Of a DNA stretch of 46,372 bases, positions 1,853-34,045 are shown in pieces. The notes beneath the pieces were generated by a model. It searched no databases. It had not been told where the DNA came from and saw nothing but the letters and a program-made list of their open reading frames with translations. The position numbers and the translations under genes were made by a program. Positions within the stretch are counted from its first letter, which is position 1; each line of letters begins with the position of its first letter. The stretch spans positions 1 to 46,372 of the forward strand of contig CALHEE010000012.1 in NCBI GenBank assembly GCA_938023415.1. Reading direction: 5' to 3'. This DNA is from Minisyncoccota bacterium. Lineage in GTDB: Bacteria > Patescibacteriota > Minisyncoccia > Minisyncoccales > GBS-2.

Positions 1853-1876
1853 TTGATTTTTCTTAACAATTTTCAG

Positions 1877-2214
1877 TGGAGATGGCGAGAATCGAACTCG
1901 CGTCTGGAAAGTTAAACCTAAAATAGGGTTACAGGCTTAGTCTGGTTTAGAGGAAGGGTAAAGAGTAAAAACCAGACAAAATCTCTCTACCCATCATCCG
2001 ATGAAGTTTCGATAGTTCTTCTCGGATTTAAAAGAACTATCTATCTCGCAAATTATCACGCCAAAGATTAGCTAGCGAGAATCGCTAATTTTGGCGGCCT
2101 TAGCATTAAGCATAGGCTAAGGCAGGTTCTCTGGATAAGTTGGCACTTATTTTAAGGCAAAGAACGTGCCTGCCTATTTTAGGTTCACTCTCCATCGAAA
2201 CCTTTTGCATCCCC
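1877..2214 (-). ncRNA. ssrA: tmRNA (SsrA), about 338 nt, CCA not encoded
   Basis: On the minus strand the 5' end reads GGGGATGCAAAAGGTTTCGATGGAGAG (consensus-like GGGG...GG(A/T)TTCGA(C/T)GG). The 3' end reads GCGAGTTCGATTCTCGC-CATCTCC-A, i.e. T-arm plus acceptor strand. The 7-bp acceptor GGGGAUG/CAUCUCC includes the G3:U70 alanine identity pair. An internal tag frame follows AAAATAAGT. smpB is immediately upstream. Confidence 0.85.
2106..2144 (-). other. tmRNA tag reading frame: resume codon GCC, encoded tag ANLSREPALAYA, stop TAA with a second in-frame TAA two codons later
   Basis: Minus strand: ...AAAATAAGT GCC AAC TTA TCC AGA GAA CCT GCC TTA GCC TAT GCT TAA TGC TAA. The context resembles the E. 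coli resume region (AAUAGUC GCA AAC ...). Confidence 0.6.
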
Positions 2215-3039: not shown

Positions 3040-4644
3040 ATGATTCGAAAAAAAATTTTAAATTTAATCGGAAAAACGCTCAGACGACTTCAAAAAGAAA
3101 AACTTTTTCCTTTGGTTGATTTATCAAAAATTAAGGTCGAACATTCTCCAAAAAGAGAATACGGAGATTATTGTAGTAATGTGGCAATGGTTTTGGCTGG
3201 AATTTTAAAGAAAGAGCCCAAAGAGATTGCGAAAATCTTTCTAGAAAAACTTCAGGAGTTTAAAATAGAAAAGTTTTTTGAAAAAATAGAGGTGGCGGGC
3301 GCTGGCTTTATTAATTTCTTTCTTTCCAAGAACTATTTGCAAAAAGCAGTTTTTGAGATCTTAAAAAAAGATAAAGATTTTGGACGTTTAAATGTTGGGA
3401 AAAATATAAAAACTCAAGTTGAGTTTATTTCCGCAAACCCTACCGGCCCCCTCCATATTGGTAACGGAAGAGGAGCTTTTTTCGGAGATGTCTTGGCCAA
3501 TCTTTTAGAAAAGGCAGGTTATAAAGTGGAAAGAGAATACTATCTGAATGATGCCAAATTCAATACCCAAATTCAAACTTTAGGAAAAACTGCCTTAGGA
3601 AAGGGGAAAACTTATTTAAATGATTATCTTCAATCTAAGATTTTAAAAATTAAGACTAAATTAAAAAGAGTAAACAATGATGCAGAGGCAGGCTATCTTT
3701 TAGCAAAAGAAGTTTTCAAAGATATCAAAAATTTTATTGAAAAAGAACTGAAAATTAAATTTCACAAATGGGTATCTGAAGAGGAGCTTTATCGAAAAAA
3801 TAAAGTGAAAAAAATCTATCAATGGTTAAAAGCTCAAAACTTAGTCTATCAAAAAGAAGGAGCAGAATGGCTTAAAATCTCAGATTTTGGGGCACCAAAA
3901 GATGAGGTGATTATCAGAAAAACTGGAGAACCAACCTATTTTTTATCAGACATTGCCTATCATAAAGATAAATTTGATCGCGGTTTCAAAAAAATTATTA
4001 ATATTTGGGGGGCAGATCATCAAGGTCATGTCCCCAAAATTAAGGCAATAGCAAAAATTCTAAATTATAAGGGAAAATTAGACATTTTAATCTGCCAAAT
4101 GGTGAGATTGAAGGGAGGAAAAATTTCCAAAAGAAAGGGAAAAATCATTACCTTAAAAGAGCTGATTGAGGAAGTAGGATTAGATGTTGCTCGTTTTTTT
4201 TATTTAACAAAATCTTTGTCTACCCAAATGGAATTTGACATCAAATTAGCAAAAAGTCACAGTCAAAAAAATCCAGTCTATTACATTCAGTATGCCCATG
4301 CCAGAATTTGTAGTATTTTAAGGAAATACAAAAAGCAAAATAAAATTGAGGCGAATATTAAAAATTTAAGGTGTTTGGAGCATGAGAGTGAATTAGAACT
4401 TGTTAAGCATCTCATTAAATTTCCAGAAATTATTGAAGAAACAGCGCAAGATTATCAAATTCAAAGAATTCCCCAGTATGCTTTAGATTTAGCCACTGCC
4501 TTTCATCAGTTTTATCAAGATTGTCGAGTAATTTGTGAAGATCAAAAACTCACCCAAGCAAGATTAGCCTTAATTTTGGCTACTAAAATCGTCCTCAGAG
4601 AAACCTTCTCTCTCTTGGGAATTTCTCTTCCAGAGAAAATGTGA
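3040..4644 (+). CDS. argS: Arginine--tRNA ligase
   Basis: 534 aa. Motifs: SANPTGPLHIGNGRGA (HIGH), an anticodon-binding DALR-type C-terminus (YIQYAHARICSILRK), and an N-terminal Add-1-like domain. AAGGAG lies upstream of the ATG. Confidence 0.95.
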   Translation: MIRKKILNLIGKTLRRLQKEKLFPLVDLSKIKVEHSPKREYGDYCSNVAMVLAGILKKEPKEIAKIFLEKLQEFKIEKFFEKIEVAGAGFINFFLSKNYLQKAVFEILKKDKDFGRLNVGKNIKTQVEFISANPTGPLHIGNGRGAFFGDVLANLLEKAGYKVEREYYLNDAKFNTQIQTLGKTALGKGKTYLNDYLQSKILKIKTKLKRVNNDAEAGYLLAKEVFKDIKNFIEKELKIKFHKWVSEEELYRKNKVKKIYQWLKAQNLVYQKEGAEWLKISDFGAPKDEVIIRKTGEPTYFLSDIAYHKDKFDRGFKKIINIWGADHQGHVPKIKAIAKILNYKGKLDILICQMVRLKGGKISKRKGKIITLKELIEEVGLDVARFFYLTKSLSTQMEFDIKLAKSHSQKNPVYYIQYAHARICSILRKYKKQNKIEANIKNLRCLEHESELELVKHLIKFPEIIEETAQDYQIQRIPQYALDLATAFHQFYQDCRVICEDQKLTQARLALILATKIVLRETFSLLGISLPEKM

Positions 4645-4691: not shown

Positions 4692-7600
4692 ATGAAGTTA
4701 AAATTGTCAAAACTTGAAGAAAAAATTATCCGTTTTTGGAAAAAAAATCAGATTTTTGAAAAGAGCATTAAAAAAAGGAAAAGAAACAAACATTTTGTTT
4801 TTTACGAAGGACCACCCACCGCCAATGCCAAGCCTGGCATTCATCATGTTTTAACTCGTATCTTTAAAGACCTTATCTGTCGTTACAAGACAATGCGGGG
4901 ATTTTTGGTTTTGAGAAAGGCAGGGTGGGATACTCATGGTTTACCTGTGGAATTAGAGATTGAAAAGAAACTGGGAATAAAGAGCAAAAAAGAAATTGAG
5001 AAATATGGCATTTCAAAGTTTAACAAGGAATGCAAAAAATCAGTTTGGAGTTATAAAAGGGAATGGGAAAAACTTACAGAAAGAATTGGTTTTTGGTTAG
5101 ATATGAAAAATCCTTATATTACTTATGAGACAAGTTATATTGAATCTTTGTGGTGGATATTAAAAAAAATTTGGCAAGATGGGCTTTTATACGAAGATTA
5201 TAGAGTTTCTCCTTATTGTCCAAGATGTCAGACGATTCTTTCCACGCATGAATTAGCTCAAGGCTACCAGAAAATCAAAGAACCTGCCATTTATCTCAAA
5301 TTTCCTATTTTAAATCCAGAGTTTAAAAAAACTTCCCTTTTAATTTGGACAACTACTCCCTGGACATTACCTGGGAATGTAGCAGTCGCCATTAACGAGA
5401 ATTTCAAATATTGTCAAATTAAAATTGGTGAGGAATTTTTCATTCTGGCTAAAGAAAGGATTAAACCTTTAAAACTTAATGGAGAAATTATTCAAGAATT
5501 TTTCGGAAAGGATCTTTTAAAAATTTATTATCAACCACCTTATCCGCTAGAAGAAGAGAAAAAAATGACAATTTATCGGGTGATAAGCGGAGATTTCGTT
5601 TCTTTAGAGGAGGGTACAGGTTTGGTTCACATTGCGCCAGCTTTTGGTGAAGAAGATATGGAAGTGATTAAAAAAGAGAATGCCAAACTTAAAAGTCAGG
5701 GACTTCCAGAATTTCCTATTATTTTAACTGTCGACGAAGAGGGAAAATTTAAGCTTAATGTTCAAAAATGGGCTGGTCTTTTTGTAAAAAATGCTGACCC
5801 TTTGATTATTCAGGATTTAAGAGAAAGAGGACTTTTATTTAAAGAAGAACTTTATGAGCACGATTATCCTTTCTGTTGGCGATGCCATACCCCCTTACTT
5901 TATTACGCCAAAAAAAGCTGGTTTATCAAAATGACCGCTATGAAAGAGAAGTTAATAGAAAATAATCGAAAAATAAATTGGGTTCCAGAGTATTTGAAAG
6001 AAGGAAGATTTGGAGAATGGCTTAGGGAAGTAAAAGACTGGGCCCTCTCAAGAGAAAGATATTGGGGAACCCCCCTACCTGTCTGGGAATGCAAAAGTTG
6101 TGGAGCAAAAGAAGTAATTGGTTCAAGGGAAGATTTATTAAGACAAAAATTTTCTCAAAATAGATATTTTATTTTAAGACATGGAGAATCAGAGATGAAC
6201 AAAAAGGGAATTATCATTTCTCTTTTGCCAGAAAAAATTCCCTGCCCCTTAACTCAAAAAGGAAAAAGAGAAATCAAAAAAATTTGCCAAAAACTCAAAA
6301 GAGAAAAAATTGACTTAATAATTTCTTCAGATCTTTTAAGAGCTAAAGAAACGGCAGAGATTGTGGGAAAAGAATTAGGTATTAAACCATTTTTCGATAA
6401 GAGACTAAGAGATATTAAAGCTGGGATTTTTGAAGGAAAAAAATTGTCTCAATTCCTTTCTTTTTGGAAAAGCTATGAGGAAAGATTTTTTAAGAAACCT
6501 AAAGGTGGGGAGAGCTACAACGATCTAAAGAAGAGAATGTATAAATTTTTAAAAGAAATAGAAGAGAAGTACTCAGGAAAGACAATTTTGTTGATCAGCC
6601 ATCAAAGGCCACTGGCCATGCTTGAGGGCGCGGTAAAGGGTTTTGAACCAAAGGAATTTTTAAAAAAGATTGAGCCTTACAAACTAAAAACAGGAGAACT
6701 TAGAGAAATTGAATTTAAAATTTTCCCCTATAACGAAAACGGCCAATTAGATTTTCATCGCCCTTTCATTGATGAAGTGAAATTTTTTTGTCAGCGATGC
6801 GGAGGAATAATGGAAAGAAGGCCTGAAGTGATCGATTGCTGGTTTGACTCTGGCGCAATGCCCTTTGCCCAGGCCCATTGGCCTTTTGCCTGGTCAAAAA
6901 CGAAAAATTCAAGATTTGAAATTCAAAATTTTGTTAAAAAAGGATTTCAATTTCCCGCTGATTTTATTTGTGAAGCGGTTGATCAAACCAGGGGATGGTT
7001 TTACACTCTTTTGGCTATTTCTACTCTTTTGGGTTTTGGCCCAGCCTACAAGAATGTCATTTCTCTTGGACATGTGTTGGACGAAAAAGGAGAAAAAATG
7101 TCCAAATCAAAAGGAAATGTTGTCGATCCCTGGTCTCTTATTGAAAAATATGGAATCGAAAGTATAAGATGGTATTTTTTTACTATCAATCAACCTAGCG
7201 ACCCAAAATTATTTTCGGAAAAAGATGTTGAAGAAGCTTTTCAGAAATTTATTTTGATTTTCTGGAATTGTCTGATTTTTTATCAAACCTACAACCGAAA
7301 AGCCAGACTAAATTTAATTTCACCCCCTCCCATCACTACCCTTTCTATTCTTGATAAATGGATCATTTCAAAGTTAGAAAGACTTATTCAAGAATGTACA
7401 GAAAGCCTTGAAAAATACCAAATTACTAGAGCTGGCCGTCTGATCGAAAATTTTGTCATTAAAGACCTTTCTCTTTGGTACATTCGCCGTTCAAGAAAAA
7501 AATTTCAATTTCCAGCAAATAAAAAAGAATTTGAGAAAAGTTCTCGAGTTTTGGGTTTTGTTTTATTAACCTTAACCAAATTAATTGCCCCATTTTTACC

Positions 7601-8213
7601 TTTTTTAAGTGAATATTTTTATCAAAAACTTTTAAACTTAAACTTTCGATCTAAAAAATCAGTTCACCTGGAAGATTGGCCAGAACTTAAAAGAGAGTTT
7701 TTTGATAATAAACTGGAAAAAAAGATGGAAAAGACCAGAGAAATTGTTTCTTTAGTTTTGGCTGAAAGAAAAAGAGCGAAAATAAAAGTGCGCCAACCAT
7801 TGGCTACCTTGAAAATTAAAGATCAAACAATAAAGAAAGATAAAGAATTAATAGAACTGATCAAAGAAGAGGTAAATGTCAAAGAGGTCATTTTCGATGA
7901 AAAATTGGAAAAAGAAATTGAATTGGATTTCACCATTACCCCAGAGTTAAAAGAAGAAGGAATTTTGCGAGAAATTATGCGTCAAATTCAAGTAATGAGA
8001 AAAGAAGCTGGTCTTAGACCGACAGACAAAATCGTGGTAAAATATCAGGCAGAAGGGGAACTGGGAGAAATCTTGGCAAAAAATCAAAAATTGATCGAAG
8101 ATAAGTTAAAAGTAAAAGAGTTCACTAAGGCGGAAGAAGAAATGGGCTTTGATTTAAAAAAAGAAATTAAAATTAACACTCAAACCATTATTTTGGCAAT
8201 AAAGAAAATTTAA
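4692..8213 (+). CDS. ileS: Isoleucine--tRNA ligase (type 2, archaeal/eukaryote-like) carrying an internal histidine-phosphatase domain
   Basis: Motifs: PPTANAKPGIHHV (HIGH region), KMSKSKGN (KMSKS), TTTPWTLPGN editing domain, WECKSCG...CQRCGG zinc knuckle, DCWFDSGAMP. It is 1173 aa because of an insertion of about 196 aa. Confidence 0.95.
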   Translation: MKLKLSKLEEKIIRFWKKNQIFEKSIKKRKRNKHFVFYEGPPTANAKPGIHHVLTRIFKDLICRYKTMRGFLVLRKAGWDTHGLPVELEIEKKLGIKSKKEIEKYGISKFNKECKKSVWSYKREWEKLTERIGFWLDMKNPYITYETSYIESLWWILKKIWQDGLLYEDYRVSPYCPRCQTILSTHELAQGYQKIKEPAIYLKFPILNPEFKKTSLLIWTTTPWTLPGNVAVAINENFKYCQIKIGEEFFILAKERIKPLKLNGEIIQEFFGKDLLKIYYQPPYPLEEEKKMTIYRVISGDFVSLEEGTGLVHIAPAFGEEDMEVIKKENAKLKSQGLPEFPIILTVDEEGKFKLNVQKWAGLFVKNADPLIIQDLRERGLLFKEELYEHDYPFCWRCHTPLLYYAKKSWFIKMTAMKEKLIENNRKINWVPEYLKEGRFGEWLREVKDWALSRERYWGTPLPVWECKSCGAKEVIGSREDLLRQKFSQNRYFILRHGESEMNKKGIIISLLPEKIPCPLTQKGKREIKKICQKLKREKIDLIISSDLLRAKETAEIVGKELGIKPFFDKRLRDIKAGIFEGKKLSQFLSFWKSYEERFFKKPKGGESYNDLKKRMYKFLKEIEEKYSGKTILLISHQRPLAMLEGAVKGFEPKEFLKKIEPYKLKTGELREIEFKIFPYNENGQLDFHRPFIDEVKFFCQRCGGIMERRPEVIDCWFDSGAMPFAQAHWPFAWSKTKNSRFEIQNFVKKGFQFPADFICEAVDQTRGWFYTLLAISTLLGFGPAYKNVISLGHVLDEKGEKMSKSKGNVVDPWSLIEKYGIESIRWYFFTINQPSDPKLFSEKDVEEAFQKFILIFWNCLIFYQTYNRKARLNLISPPPITTLSILDKWIISKLERLIQECTESLEKYQITRAGRLIENFVIKDLSLWYIRRSRKKFQFPANKKEFEKSSRVLGFVLLTLTKLIAPFLPFLSEYFYQKLLNLNFRSKKSVHLEDWPELKREFFDNKLEKKMEKTREIVSLVLAERKRAKIKVRQPLATLKIKDQTIKKDKELIELIKEEVNVKEVIFDEKLEKEIELDFTITPELKEEGILREIMRQIQVMRKEAGLRPTDKIVVKYQAEGELGEILAKNQKLIEDKLKVKEFTKAEEEMGFDLKKEIKINTQTIILAIKKI
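6162..6749 (+). other. Inserted histidine-phosphatase (phosphoglycerate-mutase-like, His_Phos_1-type) domain within IleRS, residues ~491-686
   Basis: All four signature blocks of the superfamily are present: RYFILRHGESEMN (RHG catalytic His), SSDLLRAKETAEIV (second Arg), KGGESYNDLKKR (catalytic Glu) and ILLISHQRPL (second His). The insert is flanked by canonical IleRS sequence (EVIGSREDL ... DFHRPFIDEV). Confidence 0.85.
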
Positions 8214-11954: not shown

Positions 11955-13319
11955 ATGGCTGATTTAATGTCAAAAATTATTTCTTTGGCTAAAAGACGTG
12001 GATTTATCTTCCCCTCTTCAGAGATTTACGGAGGGGTAGAAGGAATTTGGGATTTTGGCCCCCTGGGGGCTTTAATGAAAGAAAATATTAGAAAACTTTG
12101 GTTAAAAAAATTTGTCTTGGAAAAAGATGATGTCGTTTTAATTGAAGGATCAATTATCATGCATCCTAAAGTTTGGGAAGCTTCAGGTCATTTGGAACAC
12201 TTTACCGATCCTTTGGTGGAGTGTAAAAAATGTCATTTGCGCTATCGTGCCGATCAGATGGCAGGGGGTAAATTTATCGGTCAGGGAAAGGCAGAAAAAG
12301 CTAATCAATGTCCTAATTGCGGTTCGCTCGATTTTACCGAACCTAAAATGTTTAACCTCATGTTGAAAACATTTTTAGGACCGATTGAAGACAAGGCTCA
12401 CCAAACTTATTTAAGGCCCGAAACCGCTCAGTCAATGTTTACCAATTTTAAAAATGTTTTAAGTTCAATGAGGTTAAAACTTCCTTTTGGAATTGCTCAA
12501 ATCGGAAAAAGTTTTAGAAATGAGATTACCTTAGGAGATTTTATTTTTCGCTCTCGAGAGTTTGAAATTGCCGAGATTGAATATTTCGTCAAGCCAGGGG
12601 AAGATGAGAAATATTTCGAAATTTGGTTAGATAGGTGGGAAAAATTCTTTTTGGATTTGGGAATTAGGAAAGAAAATTTAAGAAGGAAAGAACATCCTAA
12701 AGAAAAATTAGCCCATTATTCCAAAAGGACGGTCGACATTGAATATAAATTTCCTTTTGGTTGGCAGGAATTGGCTGGAGTAGCCAATCGAACAGATTAT
12801 GACCTAAAGAGGCACTCCCTTTTTTCAAAAGAAGATTTAAGCTATTTTGATGAAAAAGAAAAGAAAAGATACTATCCGTATGTCATTGAACCTACGGTAG
12901 GAATAGAAAGAATATTTTTGGCTATTTTATGTGAAGGATTTACTGAAATTAAAGGAGGAAGGGCAAAAGCTAATCATCAGACCAAAGAAGTAGAAATTTT
13001 ACTAAAATTAGATAAAAAAGTAGCCCCGATTAAAGTAGGAGTTTTGCCGTTGGTAAAAAACAAATCTGAGTTGGTGGAAAAAGCAAAAGAGGTTTATCGA
13101 ATGTTAAAACCACATTTTGTCGCTCAATACGATGAGGTAGGTTCTATTGGCCGGAGATATCGAAGGCTAGATGAGATTGGATGTCCTTTTGCCGTGACCG
13201 TGGATTTTGAGAGCTTAGAGAAAGAAGATGTGACCGTTCGCGATCGTGATACCATGGCCCAAGAAAGAGTAAAGATTAAAGAGTTGGTCGATTTTTTAAG
13301 AGAAAAATTGGAAAAATAA
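11955..13319 (+). CDS. glyQS: Glycine--tRNA ligase (dimeric alpha2 type)
   Basis: 454 aa, KRRGFIFPSSEIYGG..G.WDFGPLG; class II motifs YLRPETAQ..F and GIERI; C-terminal anticodon-binding domain. Confidence 0.93.
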   Translation: MADLMSKIISLAKRRGFIFPSSEIYGGVEGIWDFGPLGALMKENIRKLWLKKFVLEKDDVVLIEGSIIMHPKVWEASGHLEHFTDPLVECKKCHLRYRADQMAGGKFIGQGKAEKANQCPNCGSLDFTEPKMFNLMLKTFLGPIEDKAHQTYLRPETAQSMFTNFKNVLSSMRLKLPFGIAQIGKSFRNEITLGDFIFRSREFEIAEIEYFVKPGEDEKYFEIWLDRWEKFFLDLGIRKENLRRKEHPKEKLAHYSKRTVDIEYKFPFGWQELAGVANRTDYDLKRHSLFSKEDLSYFDEKEKKRYYPYVIEPTVGIERIFLAILCEGFTEIKGGRAKANHQTKEVEILLKLDKKVAPIKVGVLPLVKNKSELVEKAKEVYRMLKPHFVAQYDEVGSIGRRYRRLDEIGCPFAVTVDFESLEKEDVTVRDRDTMAQERVKIKELVDFLREKLEK

Positions 13320-16295: not shown

Positions 16296-17738
16296 ATGAG
16301 AAAATTTTATCTCACTACCGCTATAGATTATGTAAACGCCTTTCCCCATCTGGGCCATGCCTTAGAAAAGGTTCAGGCAGATGTGATCGCTAGGTATCAG
16401 AGGTTGAGAAAGAAAGATGTTTTCTTTTTGACAGGGACTGACGAAAATTCGCTAAAAAATGTCCAGGCAGCAGAAAAAGAGGGAATTTCGGTAAAGGAAC
16501 TTGTCGACAAAAACGCCCAAAAATTTTATCAATTAAAAGAAGCCCTGAATTTATCCTTTGATGATTTTATTAGAACCACTCAAGAACGCCATCAAATCGG
16601 AGCGAAAAGATTTTGGCTAGCGATTAAGAAGGATGTTTATAAAAAAAAGTATCGCGGTCTCTATTGCCTAGGGTGTGAGGCTTTCTATACCCCAGAGGAA
16701 CTTAAAGATGGTCTTTGCCCTGAACACAAGAAAAAGCCAGAACTTGTCGAAGAAGAAAATTATTTTTTTCGCCTTTCAAAATACCAAAAAAAATTAGAAA
16801 AAATTATCGAGAGCGAAAAAATAAAGATTGTTCCTGAAAAGAGAAAAAATGAGGTTTTGGCTTTTATTAAAAAGGGATTAGAAGATATTTGTGTTTCTCG
16901 TTCTAAACAAAGAGCTCACGGTTGGGGAATTGAAGTTCCCGGAGATAAAGATCAGATCATCTGGGTTTGGATAGATGCTCTTTCTAATTATCTTACAGGA
17001 ATAGGCTATGGAACAGATGAACAAAAATTTCAAAGATACTGGCCAGCTGACATTCATATCATTGGCAAAGGGATTGCCAGATTCCATTGCGTTTTTTGGC
17101 CCGCCTTTTTACTTTCAGCAAATTTGCCTCTTCCCAAGAAAATTTTTATTCACGGTTACATTACTATTGGTGGTCAAAAAATTTCAAAAAGCTTAGGGAA
17201 TGTGATCGATCCCTTTGATTTAGTGAAAAAATATGGAACGGATGCGGTAAGATATTTTCTTTTAAGAGAAATTTCGCCCTTTGAAGACGGAGACTTTACT
17301 TTGGAAAAGCTTGAAAAAAGATACGATTCAGATTTGGCTAAGGGATTAGGTAACTTATTGCTAAGGGTAATTAGCCTGGCAAAAAGAATTGATGGGAAAA
17401 GTTTAAGAATTAAACTTCAACGACCAGCCTTAAGAGCAATAATTAAGAAAGAGGAGAGAAACTGGAAAAAGGCAATTGAAGATTTTAAATTTAACGAAGC
17501 CTTAAATTCAGTTTGGAATTTGATTAGTTTTGGCGATCGCTATCTTGAAAAAGAAAAACCGTGGGTACTTTTAAAGGAAGAAAAATTGAAAAGAAAAGGA
17601 AAAGAAGTAATTGAAAGTTTACTTTTCTTTTTAGAAAAAATTGGAAAATTGCTTCAACCATTTTTGCCTGAGACTTCAGAAAAAATCTTCCAACAAATAA
17701 AAAGTAAAAACCCTCAGCTTTTATTCCCAAAAAGATAA
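16296..17738 (+). CDS. metG: Methionine--tRNA ligase (short form, no C-terminal tRNA-binding domain)
   Basis: YVNAFPHLGHALE (HIGH), KISKSLGN (KMSKS) and a CLGCE...CPEH zinc knuckle. Confidence 0.93.
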   Translation: MRKFYLTTAIDYVNAFPHLGHALEKVQADVIARYQRLRKKDVFFLTGTDENSLKNVQAAEKEGISVKELVDKNAQKFYQLKEALNLSFDDFIRTTQERHQIGAKRFWLAIKKDVYKKKYRGLYCLGCEAFYTPEELKDGLCPEHKKKPELVEEENYFFRLSKYQKKLEKIIESEKIKIVPEKRKNEVLAFIKKGLEDICVSRSKQRAHGWGIEVPGDKDQIIWVWIDALSNYLTGIGYGTDEQKFQRYWPADIHIIGKGIARFHCVFWPAFLLSANLPLPKKIFIHGYITIGGQKISKSLGNVIDPFDLVKKYGTDAVRYFLLREISPFEDGDFTLEKLEKRYDSDLAKGLGNLLLRVISLAKRIDGKSLRIKLQRPALRAIIKKEERNWKKAIEDFKFNEALNSVWNLISFGDRYLEKEKPWVLLKEEKLKRKGKEVIESLLFFLEKIGKLLQPFLPETSEKIFQQIKSKNPQLLFPKR

Positions 17739-29318: not shown

Positions 29319-29400
29319 GCCGAGGTGGCGGAATGGCAGACGCGCGAGGCTTAGGACCTCGTGGGAAATTCCCTTGTGGGTTCAAATCCCACCCTCGGCA
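29319..29400 (+). tRNA. tRNA-Leu (anticodon TAG), type II with long variable arm, CCA not encoded
   Basis: Acceptor GCCGAGG/CCTCGGC plus discriminator A. Anticodon stem CGAGG/CCTCG with loop CT-TAG-GA. Long variable arm TGGGAAATTCCCTTG. T-arm GTGGG-TTCAAAT-CCCAC. Confidence 0.92.
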
Positions 29401-29402
29401 CT

Positions 29403-33953: not shown

Positions 33954-33960
33954 AATCTTG

Positions 33961-34045
33961 TGCCGCGGGAGGGACTTGAACCCTCACGAGGTATTGCCTC
34001 ATGCGATTTTGAGTCGCACCTGTCTGCCAATTCCAGCACCGCGGC
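33961..34045 (-). tRNA. tRNA-Leu (anticodon CAA), type II, CCA not encoded
   Basis: The minus strand reads GCCGCGG TG CTGGAATTGGCAGACAG G TGCGA CT-CAA-AA TCGCA TGAGGCAATACCTCGT GAGGG TTCAAGT CCCTC CCGCGGC A. Its 5' end is 19 nt downstream of the topA stop, on the same strand. Confidence 0.92.

Follow-up and report, generated by a model that had tools for sequence, protein, structure and literature searches.

Here we report a histidine-phosphatase domain nested in frame within the type-2 isoleucyl-tRNA synthetase (IleRS) of a Minisyncoccota bacterium, encoded by the ileS gene of contig CALHEE010000012.1 (assembly GCA_938023415.1); the whole 46,372-nt stretch of this contig that was analysed is referred to as the window. 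Few known enzymes are as conserved as the aminoacyl-tRNA synthetases, and each new catalytic module recognised in their cores, the editing domains being an example, has brought to light a further layer of translation control. Profile searches, structure prediction and comparison with homologues indicate that the nested domain is real and folded and that its catalytic residues are under purifying selection, and the motifs and zinc knuckle of the surrounding synthetase are intact, as in a working-looking enzyme. In the best 80 loci of the Genome Taxonomy Database (GTDB), every member of the phosphatase family was either nested in IleRS or encoded between argS and ileS, and the comparative analysis suggests, on balance, that it is a dedicated partner of IleRS.

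The homologue set consisted of the best 120 matches from a collection of 5.8 billion proteins (58-100% identity, 1146-1233 aa), with JGI, ENA, NCBI and Logan assemblies as sources. The GTDB species genomes were scanned with the phosphatase profile, which confirmed 174 relatives, and the counts of architectures refer to the best 80 loci. The insert was also searched against 1.84 billion cluster representatives; the free-standing phosphatase family comprises 311 proteins at E<=1e-10. Pfam families were assigned by gathering score and NCBIfam equivalogs by their curated cut-offs, and an alignment of 60 sequences (A1) was used for the AlphaFold2 (AF2) model of the full-length protein. The synthetase gene, an open reading frame (ORF) on the forward strand, and the relevant parts of its product are located as follows; confidence in the models is given as the predicted local distance difference test (pLDDT).

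4692..8213 (+): ileS, type-2 isoleucyl-tRNA synthetase with nested phosphatase domain, 1173 aa (uninterrupted ORF, TIGR00392, 1ILE match, Foldseek)
4836..4847 (+): class-I signature G49-I50-H51-H52, GXHH in place of HXGH (translation)
6090..6101 (+): first half of the CP3 zinc knuckle, C467-K-S-C470 (translation)
6111..6161 (+): N-terminal junction EVIGSREDLLRQKFSQN, IleRS CP3 strand and linker into the phosphatase (translation, 1ILE alignment)
6162..6749 (+): nested histidine-phosphatase (His_Phos_1) domain with return linker, aa 491-686 (Pfam, AF2, Foldseek)
6177..6185 (+): R496-H497-G498, phosphate-binding Arg and nucleophilic His (homologue alignment)
6339..6341 (+): R550, second phosphate-binding Arg, in the SSDLLR motif (120/120 homologues)
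6411..6413 (+): D574, at the general-acid Glu position of the superfamily (aligned with the catalytic Glu of PhoE and PspA)
6600..6602 (+): H637, second catalytic His, in SHQRP (120/120 homologues)
6714..6749 (+): return linker F675-KIFPYNENGQ-L686 (junction pattern, pLDDT)
6789..6800 (+): second half of the CP3 zinc knuckle, C700-Q-R-C703 (translation)
7095..7109 (+): KMSKS loop, K802-S806 (translation; invariant in A1)
7353..8207 (+): anticodon-binding and type-2 C-terminal domain (Anticodon_1, aa 888-1037; DUF5915, aa 1006-1172; Pfam)

Searched alone, the insert matched the Pfam family His_Phos_1 (PF00300) with an E-value of 5e-36 and 124.6 bits (cut-off 21.7) over profile positions 2-168 of 194, and in the whole protein the match spanned aa 493-658. 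Its 196 residues carry the blocks RHGES, SSDLLRAKETA, GGESYNDL and LISHQRP. R496, H497, R550, E607, R615 and H637 were present in 120 of 120 homologues and G498 in 118, and position 574 was always acidic (Glu in 68, Asp in 52), with Asp in the window protein. Modelled alone with AF2, the domain reached a pLDDT of 88.3 and a predicted template-modelling score (pTM) of 0.85, and Foldseek matched it with a probability of 1.00 to small phosphatases (TM 0.70-0.77, root-mean-square deviation (rmsd) 2.3-3.2 Å). The nearest structures were PhoE, PspA, GpgP, CobC and a riboflavin-pathway phosphatase, with mutases appearing later at an rmsd of 5-7 Å. PhoE/YhfR (1H2E, 1EBB), PspA (4IJ5), GpgP Rv2419c (4PZ9, 4QIH), CobC (6NRU, 6E4B) and HFP (9MMH) share with the insert their fold, the RHG...R...E/D...H constellation and a size of about 190-210 aa; they are 21-28% identical to it and are free-standing metabolic proteins without a synthetase link, and PhoE and PspA have a catalytic Glu where the window insert has Asp. 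The G + C content of the insert and its value at third codon positions (0.321 and 0.296) match those of the two flanking parts of ileS (0.339 and 0.282; 0.333 and 0.281) and thus give no compositional sign of recent import. An intein or other self-splicing or mobile insertion was considered and rejected, as Pfam sees only His_Phos_1 in the insert and PADLOC gave no match; among the anti-phage defence libraries, PADLOC returned nothing and PHROGs one family of unknown function.

The insertion point separates the two CxxC pairs of the CP3 zinc knuckle, whose four cysteines (C467, C470, C700 and C703) were all invariant in the 120 homologues; the CP3 subdomain of the Thermus thermophilus IleRS bears a zinc-binding motif (PMC7191050). 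This IleRS (1ILE) was also the closest sequence match of the whole protein in the Protein Data Bank (phmmer, 6e-261), with query residues 6-483 aligned to 11-477 and residues 686-1028 to 488-818, so that about 200 query residues replace about 10. The CP3 block measures 11-17 residues in 12 insert-less type-2 IleRSs (Clostridia, Chloroflexi and others) and 202-212 residues in nested forms. In the window protein, the junctions read ...FSQN/RYF... and ...NGQL/DFHRP... (boundaries at the slashes), and the downstream flank, translated from positions 6750-6800, is DFHRPFIDEVKFFCQRC. The length of the N-terminal linker (pLDDT about 92) and the position of N490 are constant across all nested clades, which enter the domain through the pattern N-x-[YF] ahead of the RHG strand; the return linker in every nested clade follows the pattern (hydrophobic)-P-[YFH]-[ND]-x-x-G-x-(hydrophobic)-D before HRP. 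In the full-length model, aa 480-700 had a pLDDT of 90-96 with both linkers included, and the return linker reached 89-93, compared with 51-62 when the domain was modelled alone. This dependence of the return linker on the full-length context suggests that the phosphatase is rigidly packed against IleRS rather than loosely tethered. A search for a putative docking surface among the IleRS-body columns found just three that are conserved only in nested forms, too few to be informative.

The body of the protein scored 896.8 bits with the ileS equivalog model TIGR00392 (cut-off 621.4), in two stretches flanking the insert, and Pfam recognised a class-I synthetase catalytic domain, Anticodon_1 and DUF5915 in addition to His_Phos_1. 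The CP1 editing domain corresponds to aa 191-393, which match the editing-domain structures 1WK8 and 1UE0 (E 1e-40 to 1e-46). The full-length AF2 model had a mean pLDDT of 83.3 and a pTM of 0.74, with low confidence only at aa 719-767 and around the KMSKS loop, and was matched by Foldseek to the IleRS2 structure 8c8v (TMt 0.80) and to 1ile (TMt 0.89). By equivalog score, signature motifs, CP1 and C-terminal organisation, the predicted protein is a type-2 IleRS. Known structures of this type (1ILE; Priestia megaterium 8C8U/8C8V) have the same Rossmann fold, CP1, four-Cys CP3, anticodon-binding and C-terminal domains; between the knuckle halves they have about 10 residues, whereas the window protein has about 196 residues of a second enzyme fold.

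A first-pass annotation, made from the sequence alone, had read the locus as an uninterrupted 1173-aa IleRS ORF with about 196 extra residues that form a complete histidine-phosphatase domain with four signature blocks, inserted inside the four-Cys knuckle of a type-2 IleRS. This reading is borne out by the ORF and flank translations, by the presence of all four blocks in the translation of 6162-6749, by the Pfam match, the AF2 fold and its small-phosphatase neighbours, and by the invariant cysteines. The checks it had proposed also came out in its favour: the profile search against His_Phos_1 was significant, the alignment with type-2 IleRSs set the boundaries by means of 1ILE and the 12 insert-less sequences, and structure prediction recovered both the phosphatase and the IleRS fold, each with Foldseek matches. 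Its view that the catalytic residues are intact holds for R496, H497, R550 and H637 and needs correction at the general-acid position, where Asp (D574) stands in place of the canonical Glu.

The nested architecture is widespread. Both PF00133 and PF00300 were found in each of the 120 best homologues, and the domain was nested in a full IleRS at 59 of the 80 best GTDB loci, with examples in Nealsonbacteria (placed within the Parcubacteria/Patescibacteria group by the NCBI taxonomy), Parcubacteria DG_74_1, Wildermuthbacteria and the single-cell genome of Paceibacter normanii SCGC AAA255-P19. The names of these relatives and the NCBI lineage agree with the first-pass assignment of the DNA to a genome of the Candidate Phyla Radiation (Patescibacteria) type, and the proposed survey of relatives established the insert as a real feature that is shared across Patescibacteria and not unique to this genome. 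Public annotations of the nested proteins read 'class I tRNA ligase family protein' or 'isoleucyl-tRNA synthetase'. Two records with a typical nested IleRS that falls within the Patescibacteria clade (L104 and L168) are labelled Humimicrobiaceae and Gammaproteobacteria, probably by mis-binning or mislabelling.

The phosphatase also exists as a separate gene in the neighbourhood of ileS. The gene upstream of ileS in the window serves as the reference point:

3040..4644 (+): argS, 47 nt upstream of ileS (Pfam)

The cluster representatives matched by the insert were IleRS-embedded copies, fragments and free-standing proteins of about 190-200 aa with up to 53% identity to the insert. The free-standing proteins encoded in the argS-ileS interval are 46-54% identical to the window insert over the whole domain and end exactly where the return linker of the nested domain starts; the free-standing family occurs in Nealsonbacteria and Minisyncoccales, and JGI names it 'broad specificity phosphatase PhoE'. 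On the long contigs examined (L083/84, L086, L087/88, L089 and L090), the free gene lies in all cases between argS and an ileS of 938-1018 aa with an ordinary CP3 loop (9-14 residues); in L083, the phosphatase has 198 aa and the IleRS 949 aa. The gene order of these split-type loci, smpB-argS-[phosphatase]-ileS-x-recO-..., is that of the window, and the stop and start codons of the phosphatase gene and ileS overlap in three of five inspected pairs. Free-standing copies accounted for 21 of the 80 best GTDB loci, all downstream of argS; 16 of them abut an insert-less ileS, four are separated from it by one unrelated ORF, and one is at a contig edge. At none of the 80 loci was the family located elsewhere in the genome, all copies being nested or in the argS-ileS interval, and among the insert-less Patescibacteria ileS loci examined, 22 of 23 have kept the phosphatase. 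Being either fused to IleRS or encoded adjacent to it, the phosphatase is linked to IleRS by a Rosetta-stone pattern. A genome scan with a single free-standing protein (P0123) returned only an unrelated Bacillota phosphatase.

Two of the split-type loci have additional features. In L086 (5313-9853), a set resembling a diversity-generating retroelement (bAvd, an RVT_1 reverse transcriptase and a 1015-aa protein) is located between argS and the phosphatase gene. In L090 (6604-6662), the 60-nt spacer between phosphatase and ileS contains a perfect inverted repeat, GATGAGGAC...GTCCTCATC, which could be a terminator or a regulatory hairpin. Translation genes abound in the window, which encodes, besides argS, a transfer-messenger RNA (tmRNA; 1874-2214, reverse strand), a class-II synthetase (11955-13319), metS (16296-17738) and two tRNA-Leu genes (29319-29401 and 33960-34045), and related Patescibacteria contigs preserve its gene order.

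In neighbour-joining trees built from 899-926 columns of the IleRS body, all Patescibacteria sequences fell into one clade in 100 of 100 bootstraps. The split-type IleRSs were monophyletic in none of the 100 bootstraps, and three groups of them were each sister to nested forms with 99-100% support; Fitch parsimony (121 sequences) reconstructed a nested root with about six changes, and the N- and C-terminal halves analysed separately agree. In nested-nested pairs, the identity of the domain tracks that of the body (r=0.73). The free-standing phosphatases are much closer to each other, and to the nested copies of a Nealsonbacteria-like clade (L098, L099, L106), than are the IleRSs with which they are paired (for L135 and L098, 48.8% identity in the body and 76.5% in the phosphatase), and phosphatase identity lies more than 10 points above body identity in 28% of split-split pairs versus 1 of 3655 nested-nested pairs. 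The insert-less CP3 loops are of two sequence types that recur across body clades. This pattern points to either a much slower evolution of the free-standing form or a lateral spread of the split configuration; in all scenarios considered, the phosphatase is retained. A phosphatase-only neighbour-joining tree (183 columns), in which nested and free forms are interleaved, is too weakly resolved to indicate polarity, and a sliding-window identity analysis of mosaicism in split-form ileS genes gave a weak local rise around CP3 that is confounded by the non-homologous loop. An origin of the split forms by tandem duplication and reciprocal loss is speculative; between free phosphatase genes and ileS, no remnants of an IleRS pseudogene were found, and the gaps of 0.6-1.0 kb hold unrelated ORFs.

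Several observations concern the IleRS body in these clades. L089 and L134, split-type forms of different body clades, share an expanded first knuckle half (C-Q-..KSQ..S..KSQ..YC..NIKV) and near-identical CP3 loops, a likeness that hints at local recombination between ileS genes. A long-branch and mostly split-type clade (L086, L090, L119, L126, L138, L145-L147, L156, L159, L166, L169; protein P0216) has EMHKS or GMHKS for KMSKS and LISKKRYWGL for ALSRERYWGT near CP3. G49, H51 and H52 of the class-I signature are invariant in A1. The GXHH variant is a known feature of IleRS2 that is tied to mupirocin hyper-resistance (PMC10485003); its occurrence did not correlate with the presence of the phosphatase, both motif types being found in nested, split and outgroup IleRSs.

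Some IleRSs contain more than one phosphatase. P0154, a complete 1419-aa IleRS encoded on an 8-kb contig (L171, 1932-6191) and known from one Logan assembly, has one copy in CP3 (aa 496-667) and another (aa 872-1049) at a different site, after the KMSKS/stem-contact region and before the anticodon-binding domain; the catalytic residues of both copies are intact. Tandem pairs within one IleRS are present in P0244, P0261 and P0264, and P0122 (L172/L173, 366-3851) has four phosphatase stretches. Every copy that spans the whole domain has kept the R, H, R, E and H positions; the fourth stretch of P0122 is truncated, with the later catalytic positions outside its span. The catalytic completeness of all whole-domain copies argues that each copy is under selection for catalysis or at least for the integrity of its phosphate pocket. 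The IleRS variants or fragments in which two to four phosphatase domains stand in tandem also include P0202 and P0246. The gene for P0122 ends in a stop codon with the next ORF 10 nt on, and its contigs have about 2x coverage; it may be split or frameshifted.

Our preferred reading, which on balance we consider somewhat probable, is that IleRS has in the phosphatase a dedicated partner that works in cis or in trans. The insert would be an old, catalytically competent phosphomonoesterase module of the PhoE/PspA/CobC/GpgP type, rigidly built into the CP3 zinc-knuckle subdomain of a working type-2 IleRS. It would turn over a phosphorylated small molecule or RNA end tied to the synthetase's own work, in cis when nested and in trans as a separate subunit, like the editing domains of other synthetases. 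Cis/trans pairs of accessory modules are familiar from the INS domain of ProRS and free YbaK/ProX, and from the editing domain of AlaRS and AlaX. There too, one module is either part of the synthetase or the product of its own gene next to that of the synthetase, and the phosphatase has the same two forms, with 59 nested and 21 linked free-standing loci. The ProRS and AlaRS modules are aminoacyl-tRNA deacylases of unrelated folds, and their chemistry differs from that of a histidine phosphatase; we know of no role of histidine phosphatases in translational quality control. The first-pass annotation had suggested a bifunctional or regulated synthetase, and the gene-fission data strengthen such a functional link.

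Our guess at the favoured substrate is a nucleotide or the 2'/3'-phosphorylated acceptor end of a tRNA, because CP3 adjoins the synthetic-site half of the Rossmann fold, and because CobC-like phosphatases, whose substrates are ribose phosphates, are among the structural neighbours. The more specific proposal of a new synthetase accessory activity, in cis or in trans, on tRNA-Ile or nucleotides at the IleRS synthetic site is rather unlikely. For example, a CCA end freed of a 2'/3'-phosphate, a cyclic phosphate or a toxin-added (pyro)phosphate would become chargeable; if this were true, end-healing or 'phospho-proofreading' would be coupled directly to aminoacylation in Patescibacteria.

Several points weigh against a dedicated partnership. 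One locus, L006 (4206-7376), lacks the phosphatase, both nested and within 3 kb. The whole argS-ileS-recO block is syntenic in the lineage, and a low rate of rearrangement, and not selection for co-expression, may explain why the free gene has stayed next to ileS. The existence of split forms makes covalent linkage dispensable. No substrate is singled out by the sequence, all NCBIfam equivalogs being below their cut-offs, and family members differ widely in the net charge of the domain (-5 to +14 per 100 aa), without a consistent nucleic-acid-binding signature; charge was accordingly discarded as a hint of RNA binding, although the window and split forms are basic. The IleRS of L006 groups with split-type forms, is preceded by a 782-aa ORF and not by argS, and is the only phosphatase-less member of its clade seen.

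A serious, if unlikely, alternative is that the domain is a hitch-hiking metabolic phosphatase (for phosphoserine or a sugar phosphate, for example) whose function is unrelated to IleRS, its capture in a tolerant surface loop of an essential, constitutive gene merely securing expression in a reduced genome. The nearest solved relatives are indeed metabolic (PspA, PhoE, GpgP, CobC and the riboflavin-pathway phosphatase), as is consistent with the JGI label of the free-standing form; the split forms show that the covalent link is not needed, and conserved synteny by itself could hold the free gene beside ileS. Such a passenger would, however, not be expected to be confined in 80 of the 80 best GTDB loci to ileS or the argS-ileS interval. 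The high-confidence linkers suggest rigid integration instead of tethering, and second-site or tandem copies with all catalytic residues intact are poorly explained by expression alone.

It is improbable that the module is non-catalytic, with a phosphate-binding or structural role such as a grip on the tRNA backbone or 5'-phosphate, allosteric sensing of a metabolite or protein contacts. Pseudo-enzymes usually lose some catalytic residues, whereas the full catalytic set, with an acidic residue at the general-acid position, is present in all 120 homologues and in every whole-domain copy of the multi-copy variants. In the window protein, the domain carries more positive charge than the IleRS body (net +8.7 versus +3.8 per 100 aa), which would suit such a role, but a basic domain is not family-wide. 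Tandem copies could increase avidity, and nested domains of class-I synthetases often bind tRNA, as does the INS subdomain of IleRS2 (bioRxiv 10.64898/2026.02.03.703510).

That the domain is the cell's glycolytic cofactor-dependent phosphoglycerate mutase (dPGM), fused to IleRS, is very improbable. The first-pass annotation had called the domain PGAM-like, that is, like phosphoglycerate mutase, and dPGM_arch is indeed the top NCBIfam match by score. This score (95.8 bits) is nevertheless far below the cut-off of 225, as are those of the other mutase models (pgm_1, 25.2 versus 81.7; GpmB, 69 versus 261). The structural distance to mutases (rmsd 5-7 Å) exceeds that to phosphatases (2.3-3.2 Å), and the chain re-enters IleRS and has no free C-terminal tail. 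At the positions of the dPGM motifs E-R-H-Y-G and H-G-N, the window protein reads D-I-K-A-G and S-H-Q-R-P. The phosphatase models CobC (TIGR03162, 88.5 versus 162.9), PspA (NF045917, 70.3 versus 350) and SixA (TIGR00249, 37.7 versus 74.5) were missed as well; all equivalogs, GpgB-like included, remained well below their cut-offs, and none of them assigns the domain to a subfamily or, by that route, to a substrate. Sequence and model thus place the domain in the histidine-phosphatase superfamily, as the earlier label implied, and describe it as phosphatase-like (PhoE/PspA/CobC/GpgP type), with a mutase role unlikely.

Finally, an assembly chimera or hidden frameshift that joined a phosphatase gene into ileS is effectively refuted: apart from the metagenome type of the contig nothing speaks for it, and it is excluded by the recurrence of the architecture in many independent assemblies, with 120 of 120 best protein clusters from four sources and 59 GTDB species genomes, one of them from a single cell, as well as by conserved junction motifs and an insert base composition equal to that of the flanking gene.

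Two catalogued protein families come closest to the architecture described here. NF040702 (ileS_w_GNAT) is an IleRS with an extra enzyme domain, an N-acetyltransferase, of a different family from the phosphatase; the window protein matches only its N-terminal IleRS part (294 bits, cut-off 1999). The existence of this family indicates that IleRS tolerates additional enzyme domains and that such additions are not unprecedented. The RNase H/CobC-like acid phosphatase (Rv2228c type, NF005567) has a CobC-like domain fused to a nucleic-acid enzyme. The insert scored 78 bits over its phosphatase part (cut-off 326); that fusion is end to end with RNase H as partner, whereas the window domain is nested. 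One relative, P0243 (1066 aa), bears both a phosphatase and a GNAT domain: an N-terminal IleRS part with a match to an IS200-like Y1 transposase (aa 340-461) is followed by the phosphatase (680-854) and a C-terminal GNAT acetyltransferase (about 935-1063), and the gene may be composite or mis-called.

The first-pass statement that no synthetase with such an embedded domain was known agrees with the literature. No synthetase with a histidine-phosphatase domain was found described in the searchable full-text literature, which covers few subscription journals so that absence is not proof, and the text of a 2026 preprint on IleRS domain evolution contains no histidine-phosphatase-bearing synthetase. 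The architecture is thus common in public sequences, yet apparently undescribed; new here are the free-standing split form adjoining an insert-less ileS and the multi-copy IleRS variants.

In a large uncultured branch of the Patescibacteria, an essential synthetase is shown here to house another, apparently active enzyme in its catalytic core. Whether fused or split, evolution has kept the two together, which is a classic Rosetta-stone signal of shared function, and the natural split forms make this function directly testable. Identification of the substrate could tie phosphate or nucleotide chemistry to tRNA charging in a new way in organisms with minimal genomes; should the phosphatase be an unrelated metabolic enzyme, it would still illustrate cleanly how a domain can be stably nested in an essential gene and how such nesting can be reversed.

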